62,260 nt of DNA from a virus (lineage: Duplodnaviria > Caudoviricetes): positions 1-62,260 of IMG/VR virus record IMGVR_UViG_3300048801_000006. The stretch is one strand, 5' to 3'. Position 1 is the first letter of the stretch. The number at the start of each line of letters is the position of its first letter. The notes beneath the pieces are model-generated. The model saw only the letters and a program-made list of their open reading frames with translations, did not search any database and was not told where the DNA came from. Below, in pieces: positions 10,375 to 56,615 of the stretch. The translations under genes were made by a program, and so were the position numbers.

Positions 10375-10427
10375 CGGCTCGACTGACTAGAGCTTGGACC
10401 ACACTTGAAAAGGCAGGAGTGACTTCG

Positions 10428-11534: not shown

Positions 11535-11559
11535 GAAATAACCCCCCAGCAAAAGTCCG

Positions 11560-11599
11560 GGGCCGGAGGGGACATGCCCTCCGGCCCTATTTGTTTTTT
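11560..11599 (+). terminator. rho-independent terminator after the capsid gene
   Basis: GGGCCGGAGGG-gacatg-CCCTCCGGCCC (11-bp stem) followed by tatttgttttt. Confidence 0.9.
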
Positions 11600-11652
11600 A
11601 TCGCTGATTGTGCATAAGTCTGCCTCGGCAAACACCCGAGGGGAGAAACCTG

Positions 11653-12300
11653 ATGGCGATGACGGCACAAGAGAAGCGCGAAGCCCGGGCGGCGAAGCGC
11701 GCAGCAGAGGCAGCCGCGGCGAAGGCGGCTGATCAGCCCACGGCGGCGGAGGCGCTCAACGCAGCGTCCATGCAGCGTCCGGACAGCGTCCGGGATGCGC
11801 ACGGTGAGATCGCCAAGCCGAAGAAGTCCGGGACCACCGTGACGGTCGCCTGCAAGCTCGGCGTGGCCTACCTCGACATTCAGCTCTGCCAGATCATCGA
11901 AAAGCGGGAGATGAGTTCGCAGGGAGCCAAGGACGTCAAGGAAGCGATCCGGGTCGGCAACGTCGTCCGGCTGCGCGGCACATCCTTCCCGCGCGGTACC
12001 CTACCGGAAGGCTTCCCGGAGAAACCGCTGATCGTCGCCGGCGCGGCCATGAACCCCGGCATCGACAAGGAGTGGTTCGACGAGTGGCTCCGCCAGAACA
12101 AGCTCAACCCGCTGGTCCAGAACGGCATGATCTTCGCGCACGAGAACCTCGACCACGTCACCGGTCAGGCGCGCGAGCAGATCGCGAATCAGAGCGGTCT
12201 CGAGCCGGTCGATCCGAAGAAGAAAGACCCGCGAGTCCCGAAACCGTCCCGCTCTGAGGTCTCGGAGATCGAGACCGGCGCGCGGACCGCAGCAGGTTAG
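11653..12300 (+). CDS. conserved phage protein downstream of the capsid gene
   Basis: GGAG RBS; VTVACKL...WF.EWL.QN..NPLV.NG.IFA motif typical of this position. Confidence 0.75.
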   Translation: MAMTAQEKREARAAKRAAEAAAAKAADQPTAAEALNAASMQRPDSVRDAHGEIAKPKKSGTTVTVACKLGVAYLDIQLCQIIEKREMSSQGAKDVKEAIRVGNVVRLRGTSFPRGTLPEGFPEKPLIVAGAAMNPGIDKEWFDEWLRQNKLNPLVQNGMIFAHENLDHVTGQAREQIANQSGLEPVDPKKKDPRVPKPSRSEVSEIETGARTAAG

Positions 12301-12311
12301 GAGAAACCATC

Positions 12312-12605
12312 ATGGTCAAGGTCGCTTGCTATCACCCGAACGGCGTCATGCTGAACCTATTCAAGCCCGGCTTCGATGACGGCACGGGCGTCAAGCAGAT
12401 GATCCGGGACGGCGTCGGTCACCGGCTCAATGGTCCGGACCGCGATTCGGAAAAGGCGCATCTTCCCGGCATCACGGAGGTCCCGGACGCGTGGATGGCG
12501 GAGTGGTTGAAGCAGAACGAACTCAACCCGATGGTCGCCATGAATCACATCTACGTCCTGAAAGAGGGCGAGGAGCCAAACCCTACGCCGCCGCCGGCGA
12601 AGTGA
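12312..12605 (+). CDS. short paralog of the preceding protein
   Basis: VKVACYHPNG...WMAEWLKQNELNPMV aligns with 11653..12300. Confidence 0.75.
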   Translation: MVKVACYHPNGVMLNLFKPGFDDGTGVKQMIRDGVGHRLNGPDRDSEKAHLPGITEVPDAWMAEWLKQNELNPMVAMNHIYVLKEGEEPNPTPPPAK

Positions 12606-12919
12606 ACTTCAACGAGACGATAGCCAAGAGCGTCGAACTCGACCGCCATTTGGCGCAATCTGTGGAGAAGACGATGGCTGAGATCGGCGGAAGTACGAAG
12701 ATGCTCGGGGAGATCGGCTCCCTGTTTGCTGACGTCCGGAAGGCGATGGAGGATGCGAAGCTCGGGATCGCCGGCGCAGCCTCCGAGCTGATGGTTGAGG
12801 TCAAGGGGCTGGAGCACATCCAGACCGCGATCCGCAGCGAGACAGAATCGGTGCGGAAGTTTAAGGTCCAGCTGCTCGGCAACGCGACCGGCGGAGAGAA
12901 CACCCCCGAGGGGACCTGA
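12602..12919 (+). CDS. hypothetical helical protein
   Basis: GTG start overlapping the previous stop; stop overlaps the next start. Confidence 0.6.
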   Translation: MNFNETIAKSVELDRHLAQSVEKTMAEIGGSTKMLGEIGSLFADVRKAMEDAKLGIAGAASELMVEVKGLEHIQTAIRSETESVRKFKVQLLGNATGGENTPEGT

Positions 12920-13440
12920 TGGCCATCACGCTCAACGGACCGCAGCTGGTCACGTTCGTCCAGAACGACTTCAACGCGATGTTCCCGGAGTTCATCGCCT
13001 GCGACCTGATCGCGGAGCAGAGCTGGTTCCTCCGCGCCAGCGTCCTGTGGGAAAACACGAGCAACAACCCCGCGTCCGGCGACACGGGGACGATGACGGT
13101 CCTGCTCTACCTACTGACCGCTCACATCGGCTGGCTCTCGGCCCCGCGCGATGGCTCCGGCAACCCAACAAGCGCCAGCCTAGCGGTCCAACCCGCGTCT
13201 CCCATCGTCGGCCGGATCAACACCGCCAGCGAGGGCTCCGTCTCCGTCGGCGCTGACATCGGTGACGCGGCCGCGGGCTCTCCCTCTCAGCCTTGGTACA
13301 TGCAGACCCGGTACGGCGCGGAGTTCTGGGCGGCGACCGCCGGCTACCGTCTCTCGGGCGCGACCTTCGTGCCTCCGGGCGGCATCGGCGTTCCTCCGGG
13401 CGTGATCCTCGGACCGGGCTGGAGCCGTGGAAGGTACTGA
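12919..13440 (+). CDS. head-tail adaptor (DUF4054-like)
   Basis: F.AMFPEF, LLYLLTAHI, VGRI..ASEGSVSV, WY.QTRYGAEFW. Confidence 0.88.
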   Translation: MAITLNGPQLVTFVQNDFNAMFPEFIACDLIAEQSWFLRASVLWENTSNNPASGDTGTMTVLLYLLTAHIGWLSAPRDGSGNPTSASLAVQPASPIVGRINTASEGSVSVGADIGDAAAGSPSQPWYMQTRYGAEFWAATAGYRLSGATFVPPGGIGVPPGVILGPGWSRGRY

Positions 13441-13442
13441 CC

Positions 13443-13931
13443 GTGGCTGAGATCAAGGGCGGCGACAAACTGTCCGCGAAGCTGCAAGCCATGGCCGGCA
13501 AGGTGACGTCCGCGCAGAGCGTCAAGGTCGGCTTCCTCGCTGACAAGACCTACCCGGACGGCACCCCGGTCGCGATGATCGCCGCCATTCAGAACTGGGG
13601 CGCGCCGTCGGTCGGCATCCCGGCCCGTCCGTTCTTCTCGAACATGATCAAGAACAAGAGCAAGGAGTGGGGTCCAGCCACCGGGGCGCTGCTGGTCGCC
13701 AACGACTATGACGCCGCGCGGACCCTCAATCAGGTCGGGGAAGCGGTGACGCGACAACTCCGCGAAAGTATTGTAGACACGAACTCGCCTCCGCTGGCCG
13801 AATCAACGCTGCGGAAGCGCGGGGTGTCCGGGATGGTCTATGACAAGACCAAGCCCTCGACCTTCGGAGCGAAGCCCCTCGTCGACACCGGGGTGATGCT
13901 CGACAGCGTGGACTATGAAGTGAAGACCTGA
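13443..13931 (+). CDS. neck/tail-completion protein
   Basis: VKVGFL...YPDGTPVA.IAA.Q.WG...IPARPFF, KPLVDTG.ML.SV.YEV. Confidence 0.8.
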   Translation: MAEIKGGDKLSAKLQAMAGKVTSAQSVKVGFLADKTYPDGTPVAMIAAIQNWGAPSVGIPARPFFSNMIKNKSKEWGPATGALLVANDYDAARTLNQVGEAVTRQLRESIVDTNSPPLAESTLRKRGVSGMVYDKTKPSTFGAKPLVDTGVMLDSVDYEVKT

Positions 13932-13938
13932 GTACCCC

Positions 13939-13954
13939 TCAACGTAACGCTAAC
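13939..13954 (+). promoter_or_regulatory. degenerate CtrA-like box TCAA-N7-CTAAC
   Basis: tcaa cgtaacg ctaac in the intergenic region ahead of the inserted cassette; two mismatches. Confidence 0.25.
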
Positions 13955-13987
13955 GCCCGCGTATACAGGGCCGAAGGAGAATAGAAA

Positions 13988-14587
13988 ATGGCGCGTTTCA
14001 CTCTTTGGTCCACGGACAAAGGCGAGCTTCCGGCGAACATCCCGCTGGTCAACAACTACACGGCGACCACCAACCCCGGCCCGAGCAACGACAGCTCTCA
14101 GGGCTACTCGACCGGCTCCGTCTGGTTCAACCAGACGCTCCAGACGATCTACTCCTGCATCAACGCCACCAAGGGCGCGGCGAACTGGACGGAGGTCGCG
14201 GCCAACGGCACGCCTATCGCGGATACCTCGGCGGCCTACAACGTCTCCGCGAGCGCGGTCACGTTCACGGCTACCGGCGCGCAGATCACGGGCGGCTCCG
14301 CCTTCGTCGAGCTGGACCTGACCGGCAACCCGGCTGGCGCGGCGAACGTCCAGCTCCCGACCGTCGCGCAGCTCCTCACCGCCATCGTCGGCCCGGCTCC
14401 GGGTGACACCTACGTCCTCCGCGTCAAGAACACGGCGAACTCCGCCGCGTGGACCGTGACGACGAACACCGGCTGGACGGTCAACGGTACCGCGGCCATC
14501 CAGACCGCGACGTGGCGCGACTTCATCGTCACGATCAACACGCTGACGACCTGCACGCTCCAGAACCTCGGCGCTGGCACCCTGTAA
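13988..14587 (+). CDS. putative virion structural protein (Thr/Ala-rich, beta-rich)
   Basis: AAGGAG RBS; NPGPSNDSSQGYSTGSVWFN resembles a fibre-protein motif. Confidence 0.65.
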   Translation: MARFTLWSTDKGELPANIPLVNNYTATTNPGPSNDSSQGYSTGSVWFNQTLQTIYSCINATKGAANWTEVAANGTPIADTSAAYNVSASAVTFTATGAQITGGSAFVELDLTGNPAGAANVQLPTVAQLLTAIVGPAPGDTYVLRVKNTANSAAWTVTTNTGWTVNGTAAIQTATWRDFIVTINTLTTCTLQNLGAGTL

Positions 14588-14660
14588 CAATCGGCCCCGA
14601 TTGTGAAACCGGGGAATCTGATGTAAGTCTCAAACCGACCCGTCTGAAAGGACCTCGATC

Positions 14661-15134
14661 ATGGCGAACTTTGAAGCACCTGTTCTGATCTCGGCAGTTG
14701 CCACCACGTACAAGACCACAGGCTTCCTCGCCGCAGGCGGCACCAAGCGCGCGCAGGTGTACGAGATCGAGATGGGTCATACCGGCGCGCTGGCTTCGAC
14801 CGATTGCCAGTGTCAGTGGGACCTCTCCCGAGCGGCCACCCCCTCGCTGGCGGCCACCGTCGTCGCGGCGAACGCCTTGGACACCGCGGACTACGTCGCG
14901 GCCACGCTGTTCTACAACGCGGCCACCGTCGAGCCGACCTACACCACCGCCGGCAACGGTCTGTCGCTCAAGTCTTGGGGCATCAACCAGCGCGGTTCGT
15001 ACCGCTGGCGCGCACTGGACGACGGCGACAACATCATCATCCCGGCTACGGGCGGCAACGGCCTCGGCCTCCGCGTCAACAGCTCGAACTTCACCGCCTC
15101 CGCCATCGGCAACATCAGCTTCATCGAGCGCTGA
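14661..15134 (+). CDS. putative small beta-sandwich structural protein
   Basis: AAAGGA RBS; strongly biased codons like the major structural genes. Confidence 0.65.
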   Translation: MANFEAPVLISAVATTYKTTGFLAAGGTKRAQVYEIEMGHTGALASTDCQCQWDLSRAATPSLAATVVAANALDTADYVAATLFYNAATVEPTYTTAGNGLSLKSWGINQRGSYRWRALDDGDNIIIPATGGNGLGLRVNSSNFTASAIGNISFIER

Positions 15135-15140
15135 TCAGCC

Positions 15141-15428
15141 ATGCCGGCGCTGCGTATCAAACCCGGCGGAATCAACACCTACTTCGACCCCGTCTACGGC
15201 GAGGTCGAAGCTCACTCCTCGACATGCTCGCACTGTCAGACGATCACCGATTTCCCGAGCCTCAAGCGGATGTTCGACCACGTCGAGATGTGCCGTGGTT
15301 GCATGAAGCTGATCTGCCTCAGATGCGTCGGGAAGGGCTGCCGCCCGTATGAGAAGGAAGCGGAGCGGCAGGAGCGAGAGCATCACCTTCAATCTCAAAT
15401 CCACAAGCAGGCGTGGCGCTGCTATTGA
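15141..15428 (+). CDS. Cys-rich zinc-finger protein
   Basis: CSHC, CRGC, ICLRC, GC. Confidence 0.7.
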   Translation: MPALRIKPGGINTYFDPVYGEVEAHSSTCSHCQTITDFPSLKRMFDHVEMCRGCMKLICLRCVGKGCRPYEKEAERQEREHHLQSQIHKQAWRCY

Positions 15429-15480
15429 GCCCGTCGTAAAAAGTCGATAGGTTTCCCGAACTTTCAAACGGGAGACCCTG

Positions 15481-15987
15481 ATGGGCATTTGCTCTGACTG
15501 CCGCCTCTGGCTCACCAAGCGCGTGACCAAGTACGAGGACGGCTCCGTCGTCGTGAACTACGAGTCGCCGCCCGGTAAGGCGCGCTGCGAGGTTCTAGGA
15601 ATCGAGACCGGGACGCAGTTCGGCTGCAACTCCTTCGAGGAGGGGCATGACCACATCGAGATCATGGCGACCAAGACCGGATCGCCGTGGCATCACTCCC
15701 ATTATGAGGACTGCCCGGACTGCAAGGGGCGCGGCATCCCGCAGGAATCAGAGGGATCATGCGCTCGCTGCTGCGGGACCGGCCACGTCCTGTTCTACGA
15801 TGACGGCTACGTCGGTGAAGAGCGGACGCGCCGGCACCCCAACGAGGGAGAGATCGGACCGCCGCCGAAGCCGACCTGTCCCGGCTGCTCCCGCGACATC
15901 GAAACATCTTGGAAGGCTTGCCCGTTCTGCGGCGTCAAGCTCGACCAGCCCGCAGACCCAATCCGCACATCGGAGTTCCCGCTATGA
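15481..15987 (+). CDS. Cys-rich protein with DnaJ-type zinc finger and zinc ribbon
   Basis: CSDC; CPDCKGRG and CARCCGTG (CxxCxGxG); CPGC...CPFCG. Confidence 0.7.
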   Translation: MGICSDCRLWLTKRVTKYEDGSVVVNYESPPGKARCEVLGIETGTQFGCNSFEEGHDHIEIMATKTGSPWHHSHYEDCPDCKGRGIPQESEGSCARCCGTGHVLFYDDGYVGEERTRRHPNEGEIGPPPKPTCPGCSRDIETSWKACPFCGVKLDQPADPIRTSEFPL

Positions 15988-18380
15988 AAAGTGAGCAGTT
16001 CTGGACGTGGTTCGACACCTTCGCCGCCCCGAAGCTCGGGACCTCCGAGGTCTTCCCGCGCGAGCGGACCTTCCGGAAGATGTTCGAGCATCTCGACTCG
16101 TTCGACCGACCGGTCCACATCATCGAGACCGGCTGCGTCGAGGACCCGGACAACTGGATCGGTAACGGCTGCTCGACCATCCTGTTTCAGAAGTACATCG
16201 AGACGCATCCGGCCTGCACCGCGCGCTCCGTCGAGATCATCCCGGAGAAGGTCGAGGTGGCGAAGAAGCTCTGCCCGAACGTCTATATGCACTGCGGGGA
16301 CAGCGTAGCGTTCCTCGGGGATCGAGACCTTTGGGATCATCCGGTAGATCTGCTCTACCTCGACGCCTCACACCATGACTGGATCAGGGAGGCTCCGTCT
16401 CAGGTCCATCATTACCGTGAGCTGATGGCCGCCTTGCCGCAGATGCACGCGCGGACCTTGGTGGTCGTCGATGACAGCGTGATCTCGGCCGACGATTATC
16501 CGCAGGCAAAGGTGATCGGCAAGGGCGGGCTGGTCGCGCAGTTCGCGCTTGAGGTCGGCGCGGATTTCGAGTTTTGCGACTATCAGGTCGGATTCACGAA
16601 CCTGACGAATGACGCGCCGAGGGACATGGATCAGGTCGAGGGCCTGATAGCCCGCGCGCGGGATCACGCGGAGGCTAACCGATCCATCGCCGCTGACCGG
16701 CTCTACCGGCTGGTCATGATCTCCACCCCTCCGCCGTGGAATGGACGCGCTCGGATCGCCCGAGGCGAGGCCTGCGCCAACTTCGCGCGCAACGCGCTCC
16801 ACATGAAGAAATACGGCGTGGCGATCGATTGGTACCGCTCCGCGCTGGACGCCGATCCCCGCGCCTCAGACTACCGCGTCGAGATGGTCCGGGCTCTCTG
16901 CGGTCTCGGTGCGCTGAACGTCGCGAAGCATGAGGCGGAGCTGGCCGCCAAGATCGAGCCGGAAAACCCGGCTGTGTGGTCATGCCTCGGCGGGGTCGAG
17001 GCGGACCTGATGAACGCGGAGGCTTGCACCGCGGCGTATGACCGGCAGCTCGGGGAGGCCGTCAAGCTGGATGACCCGGCGGCGATCTCGGCCGCGCTCC
17101 TGAACCGCGTGACCATAGCGGTCGATACGGAGGACTATGAGCTGGCCCGGACGCTCTGCTACCGGCTGATCGAGCTGGAGGTCCGCAAGGGTGACGCCTA
17201 CCACGTCCTCGCCATGATGGAGTACCGGCAGGCGAATCATGAGCGGTCCATCGAGCTGTTCGACAAGGCGCTGGCGGAGGGCGCGAGCAACCAGCCCATC
17301 GTTCACTGGAACAAGTCACTGCCGCTTCACTCTATCGGCCGGTACAAGGAGGGCTGGGAGGAGCACTATGAGGGCGGGATCAAGGAGGTCACGGTGCAGG
17401 CGATCTACGTGCCTCACCACCGATTCGCGCGTCCGGAATGGACCGGAGAGGCGTCGATCATGCTGGACCCGATCCTGAAAGAGGAGGAGCGGCCGACCGT
17501 CATCCACGTCCACACGGAGGCCGGCCACGGCGACAACATCGCGATCCTGCGCTACCTGCCGCTGCTGGCTGGGAACGGCTACAAGGTCCGCTACGAGTGC
17601 GACCCGTCGCTGATCGACCTCGTTAAGGACTCGATGCCGCAGATCGAGGTCATGCCGCGCGCGCTGGACTACCCGGGCGCTCTCGGGCTCAAGCCGTTCG
17701 ACTATCACATCCCCATCGGAGACCTGCCTCACGCCTTCGGGACGGACATAGACACGGTTCCGTGGTTCGGCCCGTACCTCAAGGCGGACCCGGACCTCAC
17801 CAGCCTCTATGGGCAGCACCTGACCGGCATCAAGGGTCGGAAGATCGGCCTGTGCTGGTCCTCCGGGATCAGGCGCAACCTGAACATATGGATGGAGCGG
17901 TACGGCTCGATGAAGTCGATGCACTTCCGGGACGTCGAGCGGCTGACGCACGATTCCGGGCCGGACGAGTTCATCTCCCTGCAAGTCGGTGACGGGCGCG
18001 CCGAGGGCCTTCCCGGCTTCGTCCGGGACGTCCTGCCGGAGAAGCCGACATGGGCGGAGACCGCCGCGCTGGTCGCTAACCTCGATCTGGTGATCACGGT
18101 GGACACCGCCATCGCGCATCTCGCCGGCGCGATGGGTAAGCCGGTGTGGGTCCTGATGCAGCGGAACGGCGCGAGCTGGCACTTCCTCTGCCACCGACCG
18201 GGGGCGAGCTGGAACACGTCCAGCCCGTGGTACCCGACCGCCCGGGTCTTCCGGCAGCACGACTTCGACAAGCTGGATTGGCGGGGAGCCGTGGATGATG
18301 TAGCAATAGCTCTCCGGGAACTGAGGGAGTCGGAAGATGGCGACGGCGAACTTAAACGACATGGCGATCCTCGCCACTGA
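15984..18380 (+). CDS. SAM methyltransferase-like + TPR + GT-B glycosyltransferase (GT9-like) fusion
   Basis: N-terminal IIETGC...GDSVAFL...DLLYLDA...VVVDD; central TPR-like helices; C-terminal E.GHGD.I..LRY, IGLCWS, LDLVITVDTAIAHLAGAMGKPVWVL, SPWYPTARVFRQ. Confidence 0.88.
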   Translation: MKSEQFWTWFDTFAAPKLGTSEVFPRERTFRKMFEHLDSFDRPVHIIETGCVEDPDNWIGNGCSTILFQKYIETHPACTARSVEIIPEKVEVAKKLCPNVYMHCGDSVAFLGDRDLWDHPVDLLYLDASHHDWIREAPSQVHHYRELMAALPQMHARTLVVVDDSVISADDYPQAKVIGKGGLVAQFALEVGADFEFCDYQVGFTNLTNDAPRDMDQVEGLIARARDHAEANRSIAADRLYRLVMISTPPPWNGRARIARGEACANFARNALHMKKYGVAIDWYRSALDADPRASDYRVEMVRALCGLGALNVAKHEAELAAKIEPENPAVWSCLGGVEADLMNAEACTAAYDRQLGEAVKLDDPAAISAALLNRVTIAVDTEDYELARTLCYRLIELEVRKGDAYHVLAMMEYRQANHERSIELFDKALAEGASNQPIVHWNKSLPLHSIGRYKEGWEEHYEGGIKEVTVQAIYVPHHRFARPEWTGEASIMLDPILKEEERPTVIHVHTEAGHGDNIAILRYLPLLAGNGYKVRYECDPSLIDLVKDSMPQIEVMPRALDYPGALGLKPFDYHIPIGDLPHAFGTDIDTVPWFGPYLKADPDLTSLYGQHLTGIKGRKIGLCWSSGIRRNLNIWMERYGSMKSMHFRDVERLTHDSGPDEFISLQVGDGRAEGLPGFVRDVLPEKPTWAETAALVANLDLVITVDTAIAHLAGAMGKPVWVLMQRNGASWHFLCHRPGASWNTSSPWYPTARVFRQHDFDKLDWRGAVDDVAIALRELRESEDGDGELKRHGDPRH

Positions 18381-18708
18381 CAGCGTGTTCGGCAGCCGGG
18401 TCTTTGCGGCTCTCATTCAGTTCTGCACGACCGTGGTGCCGAGTGAGACGATCACTTCCACCACGGTCCAGCTCCACGTAGCTCGCAAGAACTACGCGGC
18501 GCAGGTCCTGAACAACCCGAATCAGTACAAGCCGCTGTTCATCAACGCGGTCTCCTCGAACTCTATCGTCGCTAATGAGGCGACGGCGGCCGGGACGCTC
18601 GCCGGCATGACCGGCCAGCAGATCGCTACGGCGGCTCTGCTCTGCCTAGACACCGACATCAACAACGCGGTAGCGGCAGCGTTCAACGCGTTCATCTCCG
18701 GCATCTGA
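18337..18708 (+). CDS. hypothetical protein, possible fibre-associated protein or chaperone
   Basis: GGAG RBS; Ala-rich helical ORF directly before the Gly-rich protein. Confidence 0.65.
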   Translation: MATANLNDMAILATDSVFGSRVFAALIQFCTTVVPSETITSTTVQLHVARKNYAAQVLNNPNQYKPLFINAVSSNSIVANEATAAGTLAGMTGQQIATAALLCLDTDINNAVAAAFNAFISGI

Positions 18709-18751
18709 TTCGGCCTGACGCGGACTTAGCCGAACCGCCGGAGCTGCGCCG

Positions 18752-21706
18752 ATGGTCACTAAGGTCATCTTCCTAACCGCCGGAACGTCATGGACGATTC
18801 CGGGGGACTGGAACAACGGCAATAACTCCGTCGAGTGCATCGGTGGTGGTGGCGGTGGCGGCGGCGGTGACGCCAATGGTTCTGGTGCAGGCAGCGGTGG
18901 GGGCGGGGGTGGCTACTCCAAATCGACCAACGTAGTTCTTTCCGGATCAACCGTTTCCTATGCGATAGGTAGTCCCGGCTCGGGAGGGACCACCACTCCT
19001 ACGGCGGGTGGCAATGGTGGAGACACCACGTTTAATGCATCTGCAATTGTCGCGAAAGGTGGCAGTGGCGGTAGTGGCGGGGGCACCGCCATCGGTGGTG
19101 CTGGAGGTGTTCTAGGGACAGGAACAACTCGGTTCACTGGTGGAACAGGCGGTATCGGTGACGTTGCCGCCCCTTCTGGTGGTGGTGGCGGCGGCGGTGG
19201 TGCTGGCCTTCATGGAGCTGGGAATGTCGGTGGAACGTCCGGAGCGGGCTCGGGCGTTGGTGGCGCTGGGGGCACTGGAGATGCTGCTTTCGGCGGTAGC
19301 GCCGGGTCCAGTGGAGCCACTACTCCTACGGCTGGTGGCACTGGCGGTTCAGGCGCTGAATGGACGGCAACGAATACTTGGAACGGGACCACATACACCA
19401 ACACGACTCCGACAGGAGGGGCTGGCGGCGGTGGTGGCGGTGGGGGTGCCGCCAACGGAAGTGGAGATCGTGTCGGTGGTGCTGGCGGTAGCTATGGCGC
19501 TGGCGGTGGCGGCGGCGGATCGGATACCAATGCGCCATCTGGGTCGGCCGGTGGAGCCGGCACGGGCGGCCTAATCATCATCACTTACGTGTCCTTTATT
19601 GCGAGTGATCAGGGACTCCCGCAGACCTTCGCGAAAAAGCAGGCCAATCGATCCGGTGCTATCATGCGCGGCATAGATGAAGGCGTGTTCTCGCCGTTCG
19701 TCTTCTTCAACCCGACGCCGAAGTGGCCGCACTCCGCGCAGGACGTTCAGCCACCGGCACCGCGATTCGCTCAGCGCGCGGCGATGATGCCTAGTGACGC
19801 GGCTGACGGCGGCCGGTTCACTCAGATCAACTACCTTCCGTTCGGGTGGGAGGTTCAATCCGTTCAGCCTCCGCACATCAAGGTCGAGGCGCGGCACGGC
19901 GGCGTGGCGGTCGGCGAGCAGGGGACGGAGAACGTCTTCTACCCAGCGGGCTTGCCCTACTACAACTTCGGTTTCGAGAACCAGCCACCGCAGCCGCCGA
20001 GCCCGGTGCGGAGCTGGACCGGTTATCGCGGCGTCGGGATGCGCGGTGACGACGGCATCGTGAAGCAGTTCGCGAACTTCTTCCCGCTCGGGTTCGAGCA
20101 GGTCCCGCAGCCGCAGCCGCCGCGCTGGCCGCAGTGGAACATGCGCGGCCTGATCATGCCGAAGGATGACGGCACTCATGCGAAGTGGACCTATTGGGTG
20201 AGCGTCGGCTTCGAGGAAGTGCCGCAGCCGCAGCCGCCTCATCCTCGGCCGGAAAAGTCCGGTGCCGTCGCCTTCGGCGATCATGGACATCAGTACGTCT
20301 TTTATCCGCAGGCGATCTTCTATCAGTGGGGCTGGGACGTTCAGCCGCCGCAGCCGCCTAACCCGGTCAAGACGCCGCAGGTCCGCGCCGCCGCGATCAT
20401 GCCGCGCAATGACGGCAACCAAGGCACGTTCACGTTCTGGCGAAACTTCGGCTGGATGGTTCAGCCGCACCAGCCGCAGCATCGCGCGCCGGAGCTCAAG
20501 TTCGCGTCCATCGCTCCGCACGGCGATGACAGCAACTACGACCTCTACCGCCGCTGGTTCAACTTCAATTGGGAGAATCAGGCGTGGCAGCCGCCGCATC
20601 CGAAACCGGAGCGCAGTGGCGCGATCATGCCCGTCGAGCCCGGCAACGAATCGCTCTACGTCTACATCGTCGCCAACCTGATCCTGATGGGGTTCGATCA
20701 GGTCCCGCCGCTGGAGTCGTTCCGGGTTCGATATAATCGCGGCGCGGCACTCTCCAAGGATAACCTCGGGAACGTCGAGTCCGTGTTCTTCCTGCCTCCG
20801 CCCCCGATGGGTTGGGAGGTCCCGGCCTTCGAGCCGCGCTTCAACCGCTCTCCGTCCGGCTTCGCCGGGATGGCTCCGCGCGACGACGGCGTCTATGACC
20901 TGCTGCGCAACTTCCTGCCGTTCGGGTTCGAGGTTCAGCCACCGCAGCCGCCTTGGCCGCGCGTCCGGCTCGCCGGCGCGTTCGAGCCGTGGCAGATCAT
21001 GGCGGAAGCTCCGTTCTTCCTGCCGCCTCCGCCGATGGGCTGGGAGGTCGCGCCGCCGTTCTTCCGGCATCCCCGGCCGGAGCGGGCGGGAGCCGTCATG
21101 GCCGGCGAGCCGGGCAACGAGGCTCTGTATCAGTTCGTGACCCTGTTCCCGTGGGGGCATGAGCAGCCGTTCATCGCTCCTCGGGTAAGGTTCGAGCGGA
21201 GCGGGGCCGTCGCGCGGGGCTCGGACGGCACCGACGCGTTGTTTTCCGTTTTCCGGCCGGTAGGCTGGGCTCCGTCTGAGCCTGTCCTACGGCCTCGCTA
21301 CGGCTGGCACGGGCCGGAGGTGTTCGAGCAGGCGGTGGAGGCCTTCCCACTGTTCGCTCCGCTCCTGTGGGTCGATAACGCCAAGTTCGAGCAGATCAAG
21401 CCGTGGCCGCGCCGCGGTGGCGCTCTCGCGGTCGATCTCGAGATGACGAAGATACCGCCGCCGACGTTCGTGCTCGGAGCCTTCGACTTCCCGACCCCTC
21501 CGACCTATTACCGACGGCGCTACACCGGGGCGATCATGCCGTGGGAGAGCACGTTGTTCATCCCGCGCTACGCTCCGGTGTTCTACGCGACCTCGATCAT
21601 TACGCGGTACGGTGGGATCGTGAAGGTCACGCAGGCGTCCGCGCAGACCAACCTGACTTCGGGCGCGTCGAAAACCGTGGTAAAGGGCGAGAAGAAGGGA
21701 CAGTGA
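18752..21706 (+). CDS. polyglycine-domain protein with about 14 Pro/Gln/aromatic repeats (putative fibre/adhesin)
   Basis: aa 1-280: VECIGGGGGG...GGAG.GGLIIITY glycine-rich domain; remainder is about 39-aa repeats G(W/F)E.QPPQPP..P..ERSGA.M..DDG. Confidence 0.8.
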   Translation: MVTKVIFLTAGTSWTIPGDWNNGNNSVECIGGGGGGGGGDANGSGAGSGGGGGGYSKSTNVVLSGSTVSYAIGSPGSGGTTTPTAGGNGGDTTFNASAIVAKGGSGGSGGGTAIGGAGGVLGTGTTRFTGGTGGIGDVAAPSGGGGGGGGAGLHGAGNVGGTSGAGSGVGGAGGTGDAAFGGSAGSSGATTPTAGGTGGSGAEWTATNTWNGTTYTNTTPTGGAGGGGGGGGAANGSGDRVGGAGGSYGAGGGGGGSDTNAPSGSAGGAGTGGLIIITYVSFIASDQGLPQTFAKKQANRSGAIMRGIDEGVFSPFVFFNPTPKWPHSAQDVQPPAPRFAQRAAMMPSDAADGGRFTQINYLPFGWEVQSVQPPHIKVEARHGGVAVGEQGTENVFYPAGLPYYNFGFENQPPQPPSPVRSWTGYRGVGMRGDDGIVKQFANFFPLGFEQVPQPQPPRWPQWNMRGLIMPKDDGTHAKWTYWVSVGFEEVPQPQPPHPRPEKSGAVAFGDHGHQYVFYPQAIFYQWGWDVQPPQPPNPVKTPQVRAAAIMPRNDGNQGTFTFWRNFGWMVQPHQPQHRAPELKFASIAPHGDDSNYDLYRRWFNFNWENQAWQPPHPKPERSGAIMPVEPGNESLYVYIVANLILMGFDQVPPLESFRVRYNRGAALSKDNLGNVESVFFLPPPPMGWEVPAFEPRFNRSPSGFAGMAPRDDGVYDLLRNFLPFGFEVQPPQPPWPRVRLAGAFEPWQIMAEAPFFLPPPPMGWEVAPPFFRHPRPERAGAVMAGEPGNEALYQFVTLFPWGHEQPFIAPRVRFERSGAVARGSDGTDALFSVFRPVGWAPSEPVLRPRYGWHGPEVFEQAVEAFPLFAPLLWVDNAKFEQIKPWPRRGGALAVDLEMTKIPPPTFVLGAFDFPTPPTYYRRRYTGAIMPWESTLFIPRYAPVFYATSIITRYGGIVKVTQASAQTNLTSGASKTVVKGEKKGQ

Positions 21707-21707
21707 G

Positions 21708-22040
21708 ATGAGTCTAGCCGGATCGACCCAAGTTCTCGTGCGCGGCGCGACCATTCAGTTCGCGACGACCTTCTATGACGTCAACGGGGTGGTCCTGCAG
21801 CCGGACAACGCGACGGTGAACATCCTCCCGGCGCAGGCGACCACGCCGATCTCCGTCTCCATGACGCCTCCGAGCGGCGGCGGGGTCCAGTGGACGGCGA
21901 TGTGGGATACCCGCAACATCCCGGCTCCGCAGACGGTCTATTGGTCGATTCACACCGGGATCGGCGATCCGGTCCCCGTGACGGCCGAAGATGGTCAGTT
22001 CACGCTCTCCGCCAACCCGGCCAACCTCGCGAGCTTCTGA
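21708..22040 (+). CDS. small Ig-like structural protein
   Basis: Beta-strand pattern; translationally coupled on both sides. Confidence 0.6.
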   Translation: MSLAGSTQVLVRGATIQFATTFYDVNGVVLQPDNATVNILPAQATTPISVSMTPPSGGGVQWTAMWDTRNIPAPQTVYWSIHTGIGDPVPVTAEDGQFTLSANPANLASF

Positions 22041-22423
22041 TGAACCTGCACCAGATCGCCGGCCCGCTGATCGGTGCGGTCAACCCGATGACCCCGGTCT
22101 CCGTGAAGGTCTCGACCGGATGGACGACGAACCCGGACGGGACGCGAGTCCCGACCTACGCGGACCCGGTCTCGATCTTGGCGCAGGTCCAGCCGATCTC
22201 ATTCCGCGACATCCAGCAGATGGACGGCCTGAACCTGAACGGCAGCAGGCGGGTGTTCTACCTGTCGGGATCGGTCGAGGGCCTCAACCGCCCGACGAAT
22301 CAGGGCGGCGATCTGATAACATTCCCTGACGGAACGGTGTGGCTGGTCGCGATGGTCCTTGAGGGATACAGCTTCAGCGCTGGCTGGTGCAAGGTAGCGG
22401 CTACGCTGCAAAACGGGAGTTGA
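22040..22423 (+). CDS. head closure / head-tail joining protein
   Basis: MNLH.IA...I.AVNP...G.RVP.Y...AQVQP...GGDLI.F....WLV..VLE....WCK. Confidence 0.8.
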   Translation: MNLHQIAGPLIGAVNPMTPVSVKVSTGWTTNPDGTRVPTYADPVSILAQVQPISFRDIQQMDGLNLNGSRRVFYLSGSVEGLNRPTNQGGDLITFPDGTVWLVAMVLEGYSFSAGWCKVAATLQNGS

Positions 22424-22425
22424 AC

Positions 22426-23025
22426 ATGAACTTGATCTTGAACTTGAAAAACTTGATTGGGTCCGCGCTCGCGGTCCTCATCGCTCTGTCGGCTCCGGCG
22501 CGCGCGCAGGGCGTCGATCCGCTGAACATGCTCACCCCGCTCGGCAACTGCCAGATCAGCGCGGCGCAGCTCGTCGGCTCGGTCGGCCTCTCGGTCTGCA
22601 CGCGGTCCGTGATCGCGTCCGCGACCGGCTCCGGTACCAACCTGACCGTGACGACGCTGACCTCCGGCATCATCAAGGTCGGCGACGTCGTCGTCACCGG
22701 CGTCGGCATCCCGGTCGGCACGACCATCGTCTCTCAGACCAGCGGGACGCCCGGCGGCACCGGGGTCTACGTGACCTCCGTAGCGACCACGATCTCCGTC
22801 GCGGCTGCGAGCTTCGGCGGTGTCCCTCCGGGCGCGACCTACGCGTTCCTGCAGGCGGAGACGGCGAACGTGCGCTGGCGTGATGACGGCTCCGCGCCGA
22901 CGGCGGCCATCGGCAACCTCGTGCTGTTCGGCTTGGCGGGCTTCATCTACTCCGGGACGCTGCCGCGCATCCAGTTCATCGCGGCCTCCGGCTCGCCGAT
23001 CCTCGACGTGGCGTTCTATCGATGA
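22426..23025 (+). CDS. signal-peptide-bearing putative structural protein with one shared beta-domain
   Basis: Hydrophobic N-terminus ending ARA|Q; C-terminal VRWRDDG.APTA..G; located inside the tail operon. Confidence 0.7.
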   Translation: MNLILNLKNLIGSALAVLIALSAPARAQGVDPLNMLTPLGNCQISAAQLVGSVGLSVCTRSVIASATGSGTNLTVTTLTSGIIKVGDVVVTGVGIPVGTTIVSQTSGTPGGTGVYVTSVATTISVAAASFGGVPPGATYAFLQAETANVRWRDDGSAPTAAIGNLVLFGLAGFIYSGTLPRIQFIAASGSPILDVAFYR

Positions 23026-23762
23026 CGATCTCGGCCTCACCGACGACGTCGAACCTGCTGGCGGCGATGAGGTCCTTTCTCGTCGCCGTCGTGCCGTCCG
23101 ACGTTCAGGTGATCGCCGGCCAACCGAACCGCGTGGCCGAACCGTCCGTCCCGCGCTTTATCGTGATGTCTCCTCCGCGCTTCGAGCGGATCGAGTTCAA
23201 CACTGACGCCTATCTGGACTCGAAGTTCACCGCGGCGATCTCCGGGACGGTCATGAACGTCTCTGCTTTCGATCCGACCCTGAATGGCCCGATAACGGTG
23301 GGCTCGATCATCTACGGGGCTGACCTAGCGGTTCCGACGACGGTCACGGCTCTCGGGACCGGGACCGGCGGAACGGGCTCCTACACGGTCTCGCCGTCGC
23401 AGAATATCGCCAGCCGGACCATGTCGGCCGGTCAGCAGACCGTGACGATGCCGGCGAAGGCGACGATCCAGCTCGACTTTCACTCCGCTGATCAGACCTC
23501 CGGAGACCTCGCGAACACGGTCTCCGCGCTGCTGCGTGATTCGTTCGGCGTCAACCTGTTCGCGAATCAGTCACCCGCCTACGCGGTCCCGCTCTATGCG
23601 GATGACGCGCGTGAGCTGCCTTTCTACAACGCGGAACAGCAGCTTGAGTGGCGTTGGGTGGTGGATGCTTTGCTGCAAGCGAACATCGTGGTAAGCGTTC
23701 CGCAGCAGTTCGCGGACTCGGTGGCGCTGACCGTGACCGACGTTCAGGTGGCCTACCCATGA
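23022..23762 (+). CDS. tail terminator/neck protein with one inserted beta-domain
   Basis: GQPNRV.EP, IQLDFH, LLRD, PLYADD, NAEQQ.E.RW; directly before the sheath. Confidence 0.78.
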   Translation: MTISASPTTSNLLAAMRSFLVAVVPSDVQVIAGQPNRVAEPSVPRFIVMSPPRFERIEFNTDAYLDSKFTAAISGTVMNVSAFDPTLNGPITVGSIIYGADLAVPTTVTALGTGTGGTGSYTVSPSQNIASRTMSAGQQTVTMPAKATIQLDFHSADQTSGDLANTVSALLRDSFGVNLFANQSPAYAVPLYADDARELPFYNAEQQLEWRWVVDALLQANIVVSVPQQFADSVALTVTDVQVAYP

Positions 23763-53510: not shown

Positions 53511-54197
53511 ATGGCCAAGGCGCGCGGCGGTGTTTCTCACCGCCTACTTCTTTTGCAAGGCATAGAGCGGAACGCGCGGCAGCAGATCGACGCGGTCGAG
53601 CTGCTCTCCCGGCTGCCTGACCGCGCGGCGGCCATGTTCTTCTTCGATCCTCAGTACCGCGCCGTGCTCGACAAGATGGCCTTCGGCAACGAGGGAGCGC
53701 GGCAGACCGGCCGGGCCGGCCTCAAATCCATGAGCGATGACCGGATCGCCTTCATCATCGAGGAGGCGGACCGCGTCCTCCGGCCGTCCGGCCACCTGAT
53801 GCTCTGGATGGACAAGTTCTCCCTCGCCTCCGGTCACTGCCACCGATGGTTCCGGCGCGTCCCGGACCTCCAGATCGTCGACCTGATCCACTGGAACAAG
53901 ATGCGGCCCGGCATGGGCAGGCGCGCGCGCTGCGTCTCCGAGTACCTGATGGTGCTCCAGAAGACGCCAACTCGAGCGAAGGGTATCTGGAACGATCATG
54001 GCATCCGCGACTCATGGTCAGAGTCCTCTGATCGCCGCATCCACGTTCACGCCAAGCCGCACATCCTGACGGAGCGGCTGATCCGCGCGGCGACCAAGCG
54101 CGGAGACCTCATCATCGACCCTTGCGCCGGCGGCTATGGCGTCCTCGACGCCTGCCTCGCCTCCGGACGCGAGTTCATAGGAGGAGACCTGATCTGA
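53511..54197 (+). CDS. DNA N6-adenine/N4-cytosine methyltransferase (beta class)
   Basis: Motif IV DPQY precedes H.H.KP and motif I IDPCAGG. Confidence 0.85.
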   Translation: MAKARGGVSHRLLLLQGIERNARQQIDAVELLSRLPDRAAAMFFFDPQYRAVLDKMAFGNEGARQTGRAGLKSMSDDRIAFIIEEADRVLRPSGHLMLWMDKFSLASGHCHRWFRRVPDLQIVDLIHWNKMRPGMGRRARCVSEYLMVLQKTPTRAKGIWNDHGIRDSWSESSDRRIHVHAKPHILTERLIRAATKRGDLIIDPCAGGYGVLDACLASGREFIGGDLI

Positions 54198-54403
54198 TGC
54201 CGAGAGACCTCAAAGCCCACGAGCACGGCAAGAGAGCGCGGGCGCGCCGCGAGTTCGCGCTCCAGCGCCGCGACCTCCGGGAGCCGTCCACTCCGCGCGC
54301 GGCTGCTGCTGGCGTGACCTCCCACGCGGTCAAGAAAATCGACACGGACACGCGCGCGGCGATTGACGCCTTCCTGCGAGCGAAGAACGGAGGAGCCCAA
54401 TGA
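54197..54403 (+). CDS. hypothetical protein
   Basis: Coupled overlaps on both sides. Confidence 0.5.
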   Translation: MPRDLKAHEHGKRARARREFALQRRDLREPSTPRAAAAGVTSHAVKKIDTDTRAAIDAFLRAKNGGAQ

Positions 54404-56583: not shown

Positions 56584-56615
56584 CCGTCGATTCTAATCGA
56601 CTGCACAGGGAGCCC

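Follow-up and report, generated by a model that had tools for sequence, protein, structure and literature searches.

A recurrent gene block lying between Neck1 and collar genes in an uncultured contractile-tailed phage, a candidate accessory adhesin or fibre module with its own protein glycosyltransferase

The window analyzed here is a stretch of 62,260 nucleotides from a virus of the Caudoviricetes (IMG/VR record IMGVR_UViG_3300048801_000006), whose source is an uncultured, contractile-tailed phage. Eight genes, named c1 to c8, sit in its late structural operon, between a Neck1 or tail-completion gene on the left (13443..13931, plus strand; phrog_222 'tail completion or Neck1', E 5e-40) and a collar gene on the right (22040..22423, plus strand). 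The latter matches PF22755 (E217 collar gp28, E217_gp28) above its cut-off, with 29.9 bits against 27 over profile positions 12-106 of 110, and phrog_1912 with an E-value of 5e-34. A first-pass annotation of the same DNA had described eight co-oriented genes between neck and head-closure genes, and eight plus-strand ORFs are indeed found from 13988 to 22040. In more distant relatives, namely Aeromonas phage 4_D05 and the IMG/VR locus L006, a collar-type gene comes directly after Neck1, so that, measured against this conserved order, the eight genes are an insertion. The c4 and c5 genes overlap, as do the c8 and collar genes, and no promoter-like or terminator-like sites were seen between genes within the block. 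An ordinary tail fibre is encoded elsewhere in the genome (33957-35087, phrog_12796). We also observe that five structural proteins of the phage have a small surface domain in common, which might need modification.

A codon-adaptation proxy, which is crude because its reference set consists of the capsid and sheath genes themselves, gave 0.80 for c1, the highest value within the block, 0.70 for both c2 and the capsid gene, 0.76 for the sheath gene, and 0.55-0.63 for the remaining genes. No match was returned by a megablast search with window positions 8000-30000, nor by tblastn with c2 and c7 in 50,697 GenBank phage records. No cultured phage is known to carry either c2 or c7.

The most conserved gene of the core is c2 (14661..15134, plus strand), with homologues in 361 cluster representatives at E<=1e-3 and in 309 viral stretches. 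Its product of 157 residues is rich in Ala (16.6%) and Thr (10.8%), as first noted, and its AF2 model is all-beta and confident (pLDDT 94.1, pTM 0.87), in line with the small beta protein initially proposed. The best structural matches are generic jelly rolls, namely the Ena1B pilus subunit (Z 9.0), the KHP40 trimeric cement protein (Z 8.7, rmsd 2.6, 102 residues aligned), and the STNV coat protein (Z 8.6), followed by further cement-type proteins (KHP30, Z 8.2; the Pam1 capsid accessory protein, 7.1; the BPP-1 jelly-roll cement protein, 6.4), while satellite-virus coats score 8.1-8.6. According to the search tool, such scores, up to 9.0, are within the range that common folds reach. Foldseek found no PDB match for c2 at E<=1e-3, and none of the 77 family members compared with PHROG had a match. 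Together with the codon usage given above, the model lets c2 be described as a predicted jelly-roll protein that looks abundant.

Directly downstream lies c3 (15141..15428, plus strand), a protein of 95 residues including eight Cys. Across 59 distinct sequences, each of eight metal ligands (C29, H31, C32, C51, C54, C59, C62, and C67) is retained in 97-100%, and alignment A10 shows them invariant or almost so, which agrees with the initial description of c3 as a zinc-finger-type protein; a profile search in the PDB returned nothing below E 0.05. Of the 80 c2-anchored loci, 75 have enough downstream DNA, and 71 of these have c3 no more than 2.5 kb beyond c2; c3 appears to be an obligate neighbour of c2 and a two-zinc mini-protein, as predicted from these ligands. 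In another phage type, the c2-c3 pair is located between the portal and capsid genes. Directly after the pair, 22 of the 80 loci have a gene for a fibre-like protein whose N-terminus is conserved and whose C-terminal domains vary, one of them being Gly-rich. About two thirds of the c2-c3 loci have no c4, c5, or c7 detectable by the HMMs used, and therefore the c2-c3 pair needs no glycosylation.

The c4 product (15481..15987, plus strand; 168 residues) has 13 Cys. The DnaJ-type CxxCxGxG motif that had been pointed out in it is present twice, as CPDCKGRG at residue 78 and CARCCGTG at residue 94, and is accompanied by a C-terminal zinc ribbon (CPGC/CPFC at 133/147). Among 21 distinct homologues, 17 keep at least one exact motif (two in 6, one in 11). 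Pfam zinc-ribbon families are matched weakly, and the c4 profile found nothing in the PDB below E 0.05. These motifs, which are those of DnaJ-type zinc fingers, suggest that c4 binds zinc. The gene is present in 23 of the 80 c2-anchored loci, most of which also carry c5.

The enzyme of the block is encoded by c5 (15984..18380, plus strand; 798 residues counted from the ATG of an ORF that is open from 15909). It had been annotated as a methyltransferase-TPR-glycosyltransferase fusion, and the three parts fare differently. The TPR region (~230-470) is clear: residues 262-436 match several Pfam TPR families, and a profile built from 12 homologues finds consensus TPR proteins (E 5e-99), the human OGT TPR (6e-25), and the SPINDLY TPR (3e-14) in the PDB. 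The GT9-like domain (~475-798) matches Glyco_transf_9 (PF01075) with 26.2-27.6 bits, above the cut-off of 22, and so do 13 out of 13 homologues (best E 1.1e-7), over just ~40 residues (profile positions 167-205 of 247). In the PDB, this domain finds WaaC (E 0.09, through the same ~40-residue motif), WaaF, and an unrelated helicase, with E-values from 0.09 to ~1; it is thus a putative glycosyltransferase recognized only via a ~40-residue nucleotide-sugar motif. The N-terminal domain (~1-215), similar to SAM methyltransferases, stays under the Methyltransf_24 cut-off (19.6 bits against 26.3) and finds support in phrog_24975, which matches residues 13-204 with an E-value of 8.5e-33. It occurs as a separate gene of ~236 aa in two loci (L015 and L027), and we call it methyltransferase-like.

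The relatives of the c5 glycosyltransferase domain are cellular, with at least 636 bacterial stretches at 31-39% identity. The four bacterial homologues that we examined are TPR-plus-glycosyltransferase proteins of 574-670 aa, and one relative, from Azospirillum halopraeferens, adjoins genes for FlgE and FlgK. Flagellar hook or rod genes are near the glycosyltransferase homologue in only 5 of 76 bacterial loci, and therefore the analogy to the flagellin glycosyltransferase FlmG, discussed below, is purely architectural. Neither c1-c4, c6-c8, nor the fused methyltransferase was found in any of these 76 loci. A prophage origin of the bacterial relatives was considered and set aside, as no other module gene accompanies them. 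A weak phage match, MW202713.1, bears its depositor's label 'glycosyltransferase tibC'.

The c7 gene (18752..21706, plus strand) encodes 984 residues in three parts. Residues 1-295 (18752..19636) contain 36.9% Gly and are followed by 12-15 Pro-rich tandem repeats with a period of ~36-40 aa (19637..21298), as expected from the polyglycine plus long-repeat protein first reported, and by a C-terminal domain (residues 850-984, 21299..21706). The N-terminal region is matched by PF21722 (Gly_rich_2) over residues 11-247 and profile positions 4-218 of 226, with 17.9 bits (E 0.0033) against a cut-off of 24.3, and by phrog_863 with an E-value of 1.8e-5. In other proteins Gly_rich_2 scores 61.4 bits (c7-family member P0077), and 27.8 and 31.2 bits (two standalone proteins of L021). 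The Gly-rich domain of c7 is thus probably a diverged Gly_rich_2 member, though below threshold. GC3 is 0.52 in the Gly-rich part versus ~0.84 in the rest of the gene. N-terminal domains differ across the 87 members of the c7 family and include Gly_rich_2 and Laminin_G_3, making this part of c7 a candidate exchangeable adhesin head.

The repeats of c7-type proteins, with the consensus NFFPWGWEVQPPQPPHPRPERAGAIMRGDDGIEAPF, number 1171 units in 88 proteins by iterated HMM (minimum 4, median 13, maximum 24); in the window's c7, 13 anchor positions were seen and the iterated HMM detects 12 units. The consensus has no conserved Ser or Thr, and therefore the repeats are no obvious O-glycan carrier; on this ground we ruled out a mucin-like Ser/Thr glycan carrier. 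The AF2 model of c7 has a whole-model pLDDT of 40.9 and an unstructured repeat region, and therefore neither 'stalk' nor 'scaffold' is established for the repeats. A role as tail ruler or sheath-lying protein was also rejected: the paired lengths of tape-measure protein and c7 are 474/984 aa in the window, 472/1462 in G011, 523/~1356 in G001, and 614/1323 in G010, so that tape-measure proteins of 474 and 472 aa go with c7 proteins of 984 and 1462 aa. As c7 length does not track tail length, c7 is no ruler. Scanning viral contigs with a pattern from the single c7 protein yielded no relative.

The C-terminal domain is the only part of the c7 model to reach a pLDDT of 57-76. At E<=1e-3 it has a counterpart at the C-terminus of 14 of the 86 other family proteins, the most similar being those of P0002 (57%) and P0003 (52%), and by tblastn among the loci it is found only where c7 abuts c8 and the collar gene. 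The c8 gene (21708..22040, plus strand), whose stop overlaps the collar start codon, encodes 110 residues, and its homologues, at 54-70% identity, were found only in L005, G001, L026, L031, and L036, always between c7 and the collar gene. That c8 and the c7 C-terminal domain are confined to loci with c7 next to the collar gene speaks for the neck in this lineage. A complex prediction for the collar protein, the c7 C-terminal domain, and c8 (partner c8) gave a score of 0.00 and 'no answer', which speaks neither for nor against binding. In the ESM Atlas, c8 falls in all-viral clusters, with a TM score of 0.74 to part of a head-completion/gp6-like connector cluster; solely from these leads, c8 is probably Ig-like.

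The two remaining genes are variable. The c1 product (13988..14587, plus strand; 199 residues) is rich in Thr (17.6%) and Ala (14.6%), again as first noted. Its residues 14-118 match phrog_33012 (E 1.5e-7), and its nearest ESM Atlas clusters are all viral, one of them having PF18454 (Mtd_N) in 81% of its members. Only G001 yielded a full-length homologue (61% identity), and the last 83 residues have a 39%-identical match in L087/L088. These similarities suggest a variable, receptor-binding-like protein outside the conserved core. Given the likeness to Mtd_N, a diversity-generating retroelement acting on c1 was considered and rejected: no template/variable repeat pair involving c1 is present among the direct repeats, and the PHROG matches of the larger ORFs outside the cassette include no reverse transcriptase. 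The Ala/Thr/Asn-rich c6 (18337..18708, plus strand; 123 residues) has no family match in Pfam and PHROG scans, one clear homologue (L049, 36% identity), and weak HMM matches in L091-L093.

We identified c7- and c2-anchored loci with reduced alignments, the sequences in A1 and A4 being too diverse for the locus finder. The same gene order is present in G001, a record of 73 kb that has terminal repeats and an estimated completeness of 100%: Neck1, c1 (61% identity), c2 (57%), c3 (67%), c4 (41%), and c5 (52%), then five extra genes, and then c7 (32%), c8 (62%), and the collar gene (55%). More generally, 15 c7-anchored viral loci extend at least 6 kb upstream of c7, and this upstream DNA contains c5 in 14 of them and the full c2-c3-c4-c5 set in 11. 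From the other side, c5 comes after c2 in 23 of the 61 c2-anchored loci having at least 4 kb downstream, and c7 repeats are present in 14 of the 16 c5-containing c2-anchored loci with at least 9 kb downstream and never in those without c5. In the two exceptions (L057 and L058), other large proteins have different Pro-rich tandem repeats of ~36-40 aa. The co-conservation that the first-pass annotation had proposed to look for is therefore present, c2-c3-c4-c5 and a c7-type repeat protein being syntenic in many related viral contigs. One locus, L028, has a c7-type gene without c2-c5 within 7.9 kb upstream, and no c5 was found in its 33-kb, 50%-complete record. In five records with c7-type genes, c5 was not found; these records are fragmentary, so an empty result shows nothing there. 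Besides c7, the 45 variable genes scanned after the core include 3 Laminin_G_3 lectin folds and 2 standalone Gly_rich_2 proteins.

In the window, G001, L036, and L046, the module is located between Neck1 and the collar gene, whereas in L016/L020 it precedes the capsid gene and in L035 it follows the collar gene. The c2-c3-c4-c5 core and c7 thus move as one unit among three genomic positions, and because the module is also found before the capsid gene or after the collar gene, it is not tied to the head-tail junction, where it had first been placed. The proposal of a module is supported for c2-c5 and c7; it does not extend to c1 and c6, which are not conserved, or to c8, which is conserved only where c7 abuts the collar gene.

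A conserved core, c2-c5, is thus accompanied by fast-changing lectin-like and Gly-rich proteins and by a long Pro-rich repeat protein with 4-24 repeats. We propose, with a probability of roughly one half, that the block encodes an accessory adhesin or fibre of the virion together with a dedicated protein glycosyltransferase in the style of FlmG/OGT, a module known from genes alone. A position in the late operon is no proof that a product is in the particle. In the mechanism that we envisage, c2, aided by c3, would form a particle-bound or repeating base of an extra appendage, and c7 would be a long flexible stalk presenting the exchangeable adhesin head, fixed near the collar, in this lineage, via its C-terminal domain and c8. 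The c5 enzyme would work like FlmG or OGT: in the cytoplasm, its TPR arm would hold a module protein for the glycosyltransferase domain to add a sugar, and the fused methyltransferase might then methylate that sugar. The c4 protein may be an assembly helper. Such an appendage could give the phage low-affinity or alternative host attachment besides its ordinary baseplate fibre.

A more specific arrangement, which we regard as unlikely, is that each of the 12-24 Pro-rich repeats of c7 docks one c2, giving a 'beads on a string' fibre threaded on a scaffold, with TPR-guided glycosylation and an adhesin head that can be exchanged. In that case the repeat sequence would co-evolve with c2, which is hinted at by the markedly different YGYE... 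and GWSIVLPDL... repeats found beside the most divergent c2 and c5 genes. We know of no phage with a scaffold-threaded appendage of this kind.

The alternative that survives best, doubtful as it is, places the module on the capsid: c2 would sit on the capsid lattice as a cement protein or minor capsid component of jelly-roll fold, c7 and the lectin-like and Gly-rich proteins would hang from c2 as head fibres, and the position at the neck would be incidental. The matches of c2 to KHP40, KHP30, Pam1, and BPP-1 proteins are consistent with this, as are its codon-adaptation proxy, crude but equal to that of the capsid gene, and the gene positions elsewhere, c2-c3 between portal and capsid genes and the whole module just upstream of the capsid gene in L016/L020. 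There is also a partial precedent in Agrobacterium phage Milano, whose capsid, by the published description, is decorated with a minor protein of jelly-roll fold and a linking protein of Ig type (PMC10491603). However, the cement-type Z scores are no higher than those of unrelated jelly rolls such as the Ena pilus subunit and satellite-virus coats, and the confinement of c8 and the c7 C-terminal domain to loci where c7 abuts the collar gene points to the neck instead.

It is less probable again that the block is a host-directed moron, in which c5 would glycosylate host flagellin or pilin, or the products would remodel the cell in superinfection exclusion or lysogenic conversion, the other proteins being absent from the virion. 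Accessory genes unrelated to the particle can ride in late operons, the glycosyltransferase domain has the many cellular relatives described above, and flagellar genes neighbour some of them, including FlgE and FlgK in A. halopraeferens. Against this, the other module genes and the fused methyltransferase are missing from all 76 bacterial loci, c5 always has phage-only neighbours that encode domains of adhesin or fibre type, and the module lies inside strings of head, neck, and tail genes at all three positions; on informal inspection, neither signal peptides nor membrane proteins were noticed. Least probable of all is an assembly-only module, in which chaperones, enzymes, and a disordered scaffolding protein would serve morphogenesis, for example of the ordinary tail fibre or of sheath decorations, and be absent from the particle: it would suit the DnaJ-type motifs of c4, the small zinc protein c3, the predicted disorder of c7, and the small surface domain of five structural proteins that perhaps needs modification, but the lectin-like and Gly-rich domains and the fast-evolving N-terminal head of c7 typify exposed receptor-binding parts rather than chaperones, and the independence of c7 length from tail length leaves no ruler.

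Accessory fibres and particle glycosylation shape the adhesion range of phages and how phages are recognized. To our knowledge, the known cases are few, namely T4 whiskers, the A-1(L) neck fibres, and glycosylated mycobacteriophages. The set described here is recurrent and portable and consists almost entirely of unnamed families, including a jelly-roll family, its zinc-protein partner, and a 36-aa repeat family. It is linked to a type of protein glycosyltransferase for which few bacterial substrates are known, and it supplies a short list of candidate substrates and partners that are testable by co-expression without the host. The rapid turnover of lectin-like and Gly-rich heads also provides a natural system for studies of adhesin-domain swapping.

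Judged by titles and the beginnings of abstracts, none of the papers found on phage virion glycosylation and glycosyltransferases describes this module, and we found no paper joining phage neck, virion fibre, glycosyltransferase, and tetratricopeptide. Among known systems, the autotransporter heptosyltransferases TibC and AAH are related to GT9 and act on repeats of the adhesins TibA and AIDA-I, which are encoded alongside. TibC is not known to have a TPR arm, and TibC and AAH use a conserved Ser in the adhesin repeats, whereas the c7 repeats have none, and the PDB profile matches of the c5 glycosyltransferase domain are only WaaC, WaaF, and an unrelated helicase. As for the Gly-rich head, gp38 forms a polyglycine-II sandwich. 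In the Gp38-type polyglycine adhesins of T-even-like phages, the glycine-rich domain is described as the receptor-binding tip of the fibre (PMC12032242); compared with that description, the Gly-rich domain of c7 is located at the N-terminus of a repeat protein and matches Gly_rich_2 below threshold.

For the enzyme, the nearest analog is FlmG, the flagellin O-glycosyltransferase of Caulobacter crescentus, a soluble protein with an N-terminal TPR domain, which binds the flagellin substrates, and a C-terminal GT-B-type domain, reported to modify filament subunits in the cytoplasm before assembly (PMC7591256). The four bacterial c5 homologues have the same two-domain build and a similar size (574-670 aa versus 596 aa for FlmG), a likeness of architecture only. 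Unlike FlmG, c5 is phage-encoded, has a fused N-terminal methyltransferase, and lies among phage-only genes. That phage glycosyltransferases can glycosylate the particle proteins of their own phage is reported for the mycobacteriophage Che8 and its relatives (PMC11256854, citing Freeman et al. 2023). These siphoviruses infect actinobacteria, carry their glycosyltransferase genes close to the right end of the genome, and, as far as that account describes them, differ from the module in having neither a TPR fusion, nor jelly-roll and zinc-protein partners, nor a repeat protein.

For the appendage itself, two myophages can be compared by description. Milano, like the phage studied here, has Neck1 and collar proteins, and its surface additionally bears a small jelly-roll protein and one of Ig type; nevertheless, these form a disulfide-linked capsid cement encoded beside the capsid gene, and the account mentions no zinc proteins, enzyme, or repeat protein (PMC10491603). 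The Anabaena myophage A-1(L) carries a bead-chain neck fibre made of gp82, gp81, and gp80, with a neck anchor, ~14 small globular trimers, and a distal carbohydrate-binding head (PMC10966104). In that fibre, as described, the beads join head to tail with no repeat-protein scaffold, and the genes are far from other structural genes and come with no enzymes. The A-1(L) fibre is nonetheless an accessory, flexible fibre fixed at a myophage neck, which is close to the picture drawn in the first-pass annotation.

An ORF listing of the window recovers the eight genes that the first-pass annotation had placed between the neck and head-closure genes, all of them on the + strand (c1 to c8, 13988-22040). 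Relatives have Neck1 and collar genes as neighbours: Neck1 of Aeromonas phage 4_D05 overlaps the beginning of the collar-type gene, and the spacing between the two is 8 bp in the IMG/VR locus L006 and ~440 bp in L007 and L008. Judged by gene order, the block is an insertion relative to the ancestral arrangement.

The first-pass annotation had named co-occurrence elsewhere as its own test, and the cassette genes are indeed syntenic in many viral loci. G001, a related viral record (73,233 bp, terminal repeats, estimated completeness 100%), shows the order Neck1, c1, c2, c3, c4, c5, five additional genes, a c7-type gene, c8 and collar, with identities to the window of 61% (c1), 57% (c2), 67% (c3), 41% (c4), 52% (c5), 32% (c7-type), 62% (c8) and 55% (collar), and its block spans the ends of that record. 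The five extra genes (11421-16807 of locus L011, the G001 version) encode proteins of 214, 746, 114, 488 and 244 aa, and the Gly-rich domain makes up the C-terminal half of the separate 488-aa protein instead of heading the repeat protein.

Alignment of c7 against viral contigs gave 21 loci, including near-identical stretches from two different records (L016 and L020), and c7 is preceded by 6 kb or more in 15 of the 21. In 14 of these 15, c5 lies upstream of c7; the ordered set c2-c3-c4-c5 is found in 11, the other three being truncated by the locus edge. One locus, L028, has a c7-type gene with none of these four genes nearby. The c2 alignment gave 309 matching stretches, from which 80 loci were retained, some sharing contigs with the c7-anchored set. 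By HMM scanning, c3 follows c2 at a distance of no more than 2.5 kb in 71 of the 75 loci that extend far enough. Where 4 kb or more of downstream sequence is available (61 loci), 23 contain c5, and of the 16 c5-containing loci that extend 9 kb or more, 14 also have c7 repeats; no locus among the 80 has c7 repeats but lacks c5. Three positions were observed: between Neck1 and collar (window, G001, L036, L046), upstream of the capsid gene (L016/L020), and immediately after the collar gene (L035). That the internal order is kept while the genomic address changes is good evidence for a functional module.

The window, an entire IMG/VR virus record (62,260 bp, linear class, estimated completeness 86%), has no close relative by megablast among 50,697 GenBank phage records, where its capsid protein reaches a top identity of 42.5%. 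Pfam and PHROG family matches reveal a contractile-tail morphogenesis string in standard order on the + strand over ~1-36 kb: a portal fusion (1110-5921), followed by a MuF-like head protein, protease and minor head protein; the capsid protein (10419-11534) and a DUF4054 protein; Neck1 (13443-13931) and the cassette; the collar (22040-22423; PF22755, E217 gp28) and a 200-aa protein; the terminator (23022-23762), followed by DUF3383 sheath, tube, chaperone, tape measure (474 aa), and baseplate hub and wedge; and, after the baseplate genes and before the endolysin, a tail fibre of ordinary type (33957-35087).

The portal gene is a single ORF of 1603 aa, in which a portal domain (phrog_146, residues 93-595) is joined to a long extension ending in a match to the head-maturation-protease family phrog_595 (residues 1350-1602); a 73-nt stretch occurs twice within the ORF, at 2937 and 4443 (77% identity). 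Immediately 3' of the capsid gene lies a strong GC-rich hairpin of 12 pairs plus a T-run (11559-11588), probably an attenuator setting an excess of capsid protein. No other + strand site from 11 to 24 kb resembles a terminator, and between the block genes a simple scan detected neither promoter-like nor terminator-like sequences. Five structural proteins have in common a small domain of ~60-70 aa (pattern '...SG..LTVT.V.SG ... GTGTGG.GTY.V'), namely the minor head protein (9885-10176), the 200-aa post-collar protein (22629-22669), the terminator (23336-23415), the sheath (24324-24688) and the baseplate wedge (32443-33029). Its family matches are phrog_21413 and phrog_38233 ('tail fiber protein'), and it looks like a surface decoration domain shared across head, neck, tail and baseplate. 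It also seems to have been inserted into the collar protein of L016/L020, where the collar match (21298-21873) is split into residues 1-43 and 44-125 and the ~200 bp between the pieces resemble the domain, with a sheath-like match at 21442-21606. Towards the end of the window, a cluster of DNA-modification and partition-type genes (53511-58713) includes a DNA methyltransferase-like protein (53511-54197), a ParB-like protein (56616-57185) and a 576-aa DNA methyltransferase (56983-58713). Two ORFs that overlap on opposite strands (59194-60096, +; 59289-60047, -) both span a tandem array of 18-nt units (59584-59735), present as six overlapping 62-nt copies with 66-82% identity.

Among the core genes, c2 (14661-15134) is, like c1, Thr/Ala-rich by composition, as annotated at first pass. 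Its predicted structure is a confident all-beta single jelly roll (pLDDT 94.1), with top matches to the Ena1B pilus subunit (Z 9.0), the KHP40 trimeric cement (8.7) and satellite-virus coats (8.1-8.6), followed by the HFTV1 turret (7.9) and TNF-like ligands and lectins (6.7-7.7), scores in the range that common folds reach; the predicted fold is a generic jelly roll. Against predicted viral structures it matches solely uncharacterised phage proteins (TM up to 0.80). At E<=1e-3 the family has 361 cluster representatives, each a standalone protein ~150-165 aa long, and none of 77 members matches a PHROG family. The two proteins read as zinc fingers are both Cys-rich: c3 (15141-15428) has 8 Cys, and c4 (15481-15987) has 13, with two DnaJ-type CxxCxGxG motifs followed by a zinc ribbon at the C-terminus. 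In c3, seven of the Cys and a single His are near-invariant, putative ligands that would suffice for two zinc sites, and a profile search found no PDB relative of c3 below E 0.05.

By its distribution, the c2-c3 pair is more widespread than the cassette and independent of c4, c5 and c7. In distant loci (c2 identity 33-42%), it lies between the portal (phrog_1216) and capsid (phrog_1357) genes of another type of phage. A fibre-like protein whose first ~115 aa are conserved and whose C-terminal region varies occurs in 24 of the 80 c2-anchored loci, its gene beginning directly 3' of c3 in 22 of them; the variable region of the L087 protein is a Gly-rich domain whose end is much like that of c7. 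Two unrelated genomic settings thus both link the pair to fibre-like genes that bear adhesins.

The enzyme c5 (15984-18380) was proposed to be a methyltransferase-TPR-glycosyltransferase fusion. The TPR repeats and a GT9-type nucleotide-sugar motif are borne out, the glycosyltransferase domain being recognised by this single motif only; the methyltransferase-like N-terminus is sub-threshold in Pfam and matches phrog_24975 (E 8.5e-33), and some modules encode the methyltransferase separately. Profile searches match the TPR repeats of c5 to the arms of the same kind in OGT and SPINDLY. For the glycosyltransferase part, at least 636 relatives are found in bacteria (31-39% identity), and the four examined are all TPR-plus-glycosyltransferase proteins of 574-670 aa, one of them adjoined by FlgE and FlgK genes. 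Flagellar genes lie within the fetched flanks of just 5 of 76 bacterial loci, and none of the 76 has other module genes or a fused methyltransferase. FlmG of Caulobacter, whose TPR domain is described as binding flagellins, has the same build as these bacterial relatives (PMC7591256); its likeness to c5 is architectural only.

The description of c7 (18752-21706) as a polyglycine and long-repeat protein holds: its N-terminal 295 residues (18752-19636) are 37% Gly and precede repeats of 36-40 aa. At E<=1e-3 its family counts 87 members, 554-1712 aa long and all unnamed, and the repeats are common to the family (1171 units in 88 proteins; 4 to 24 per protein, median 13), without a conserved Ser or Thr in the consensus. 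The N-terminal domains differ, with Gly_rich_2 in P0077 and Laminin_G_3 in P0079. Within c7, GC3 is 0.52 in the Gly-rich part versus ~0.84 in the remainder (19637-21706), the codon-adaptation proxy is 0.24 there versus 0.59 in the repeat part, and an alternative gene call begins at GTG 19589, exactly at the head/repeat junction (P0001, 705 aa). These features are consistent with, and suggest, a recently acquired or swapped head. For the C-terminal domain (21299-21706), tblastn matches among the loci are confined to a subset of c8-bearing records; structure prediction of c7 gave no usable model. Two c5-containing loci, L057 and L058, whose modules are the most divergent, lack c7 repeats and encode large downstream proteins (L057 15964-20016, L058 14438-17335) with other Pro-rich tandem repeats (~36-40 aa, ~17 or more; 'QYGYELTSP..R..RKPDLPVPL' and 'P.GWSIVLPDLPAFRR'), one of them preceded by a Gly-rich head. 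In these loci the overall layout thus survives a change of repeat sequence.

The remaining genes are variable or lineage-specific. A full-length homologue of c1 (13988-14587) is found in G001 only, and the sole homologue of c6 (18337-18708) is in L049 (36% identity). The suggestion that c8 (21708-22040) is a small Ig-like protein stands as to size, and some of its ESM Atlas neighbours, which are viral, are Ig-like; it occurs in five other records (L005, G001, L026, L031, L036), always between c7 and the collar gene. Fast-changing genes occupy 2-6 kb between c5 and c7. In a Pfam scan, 35 of 45 proteins from this interval have no family; the others include three with Laminin_G_3 (concanavalin-like lectin), two with standalone Gly_rich_2, and one each with a Vgb-lyase-type propeller, a pectate-lyase-like and a methyltransferase match. 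Several proteins of ~220-240 aa have their N-terminal domain in common with c7-family proteins.

The block is real and conserved, consists mostly of unnamed families, and is probably structural. We give a probability of about 0.5 to its being an accessory virion-surface module with its own TPR-guided protein glycosyltransferase. Synteny, mobility, domain identities, adhesin-type variable genes and the separate ordinary tail fibre are direct observations, as is the codon usage of c1 and c2: by a proxy that is crude, given that its reference set is the capsid and sheath genes themselves, c1 (0.80) and c2 (0.70) are level with capsid (0.70) and sheath (0.76). The location, contacts and chemistry of the parts we infer. 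In such a module, c2, with c3, would form an abundant base, particle-bound or repeating; c7 would be a long flexible stalk bearing a swappable adhesin head, anchored near the collar in this lineage via its C-terminal domain and c8; c5 would glycosylate one or more module proteins before assembly, guided by its TPR, and methylate the sugar; and c4 would be a helper. Against this reading we count the repeats devoid of conserved Ser/Thr, the unusable c7 model, the one-motif glycosyltransferase, the purely architectural FlmG likeness and L028. We consider it unlikely that the block is a capsid-decoration system, and more doubtful still that it is a host-directed moron. A set serving assembly only is very improbable.

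Our literature searches found no published description of such a module. Particle glycosylation by phage-encoded enzymes is reported for mycobacteriophages (PMC11256854), the neck fibres of A-1(L) are bead chains with a distal carbohydrate-binding head (PMC10966104), and phage Milano has jelly-roll and Ig-type surface proteins (PMC10491603). None of these, as far as the cited accounts describe them, joins a jelly-roll/zinc-protein pair, a methyltransferase-TPR-glycosyltransferase and a Pro-rich repeat protein. The module falls among the known themes of accessory phage appendages and particle glycosylation.
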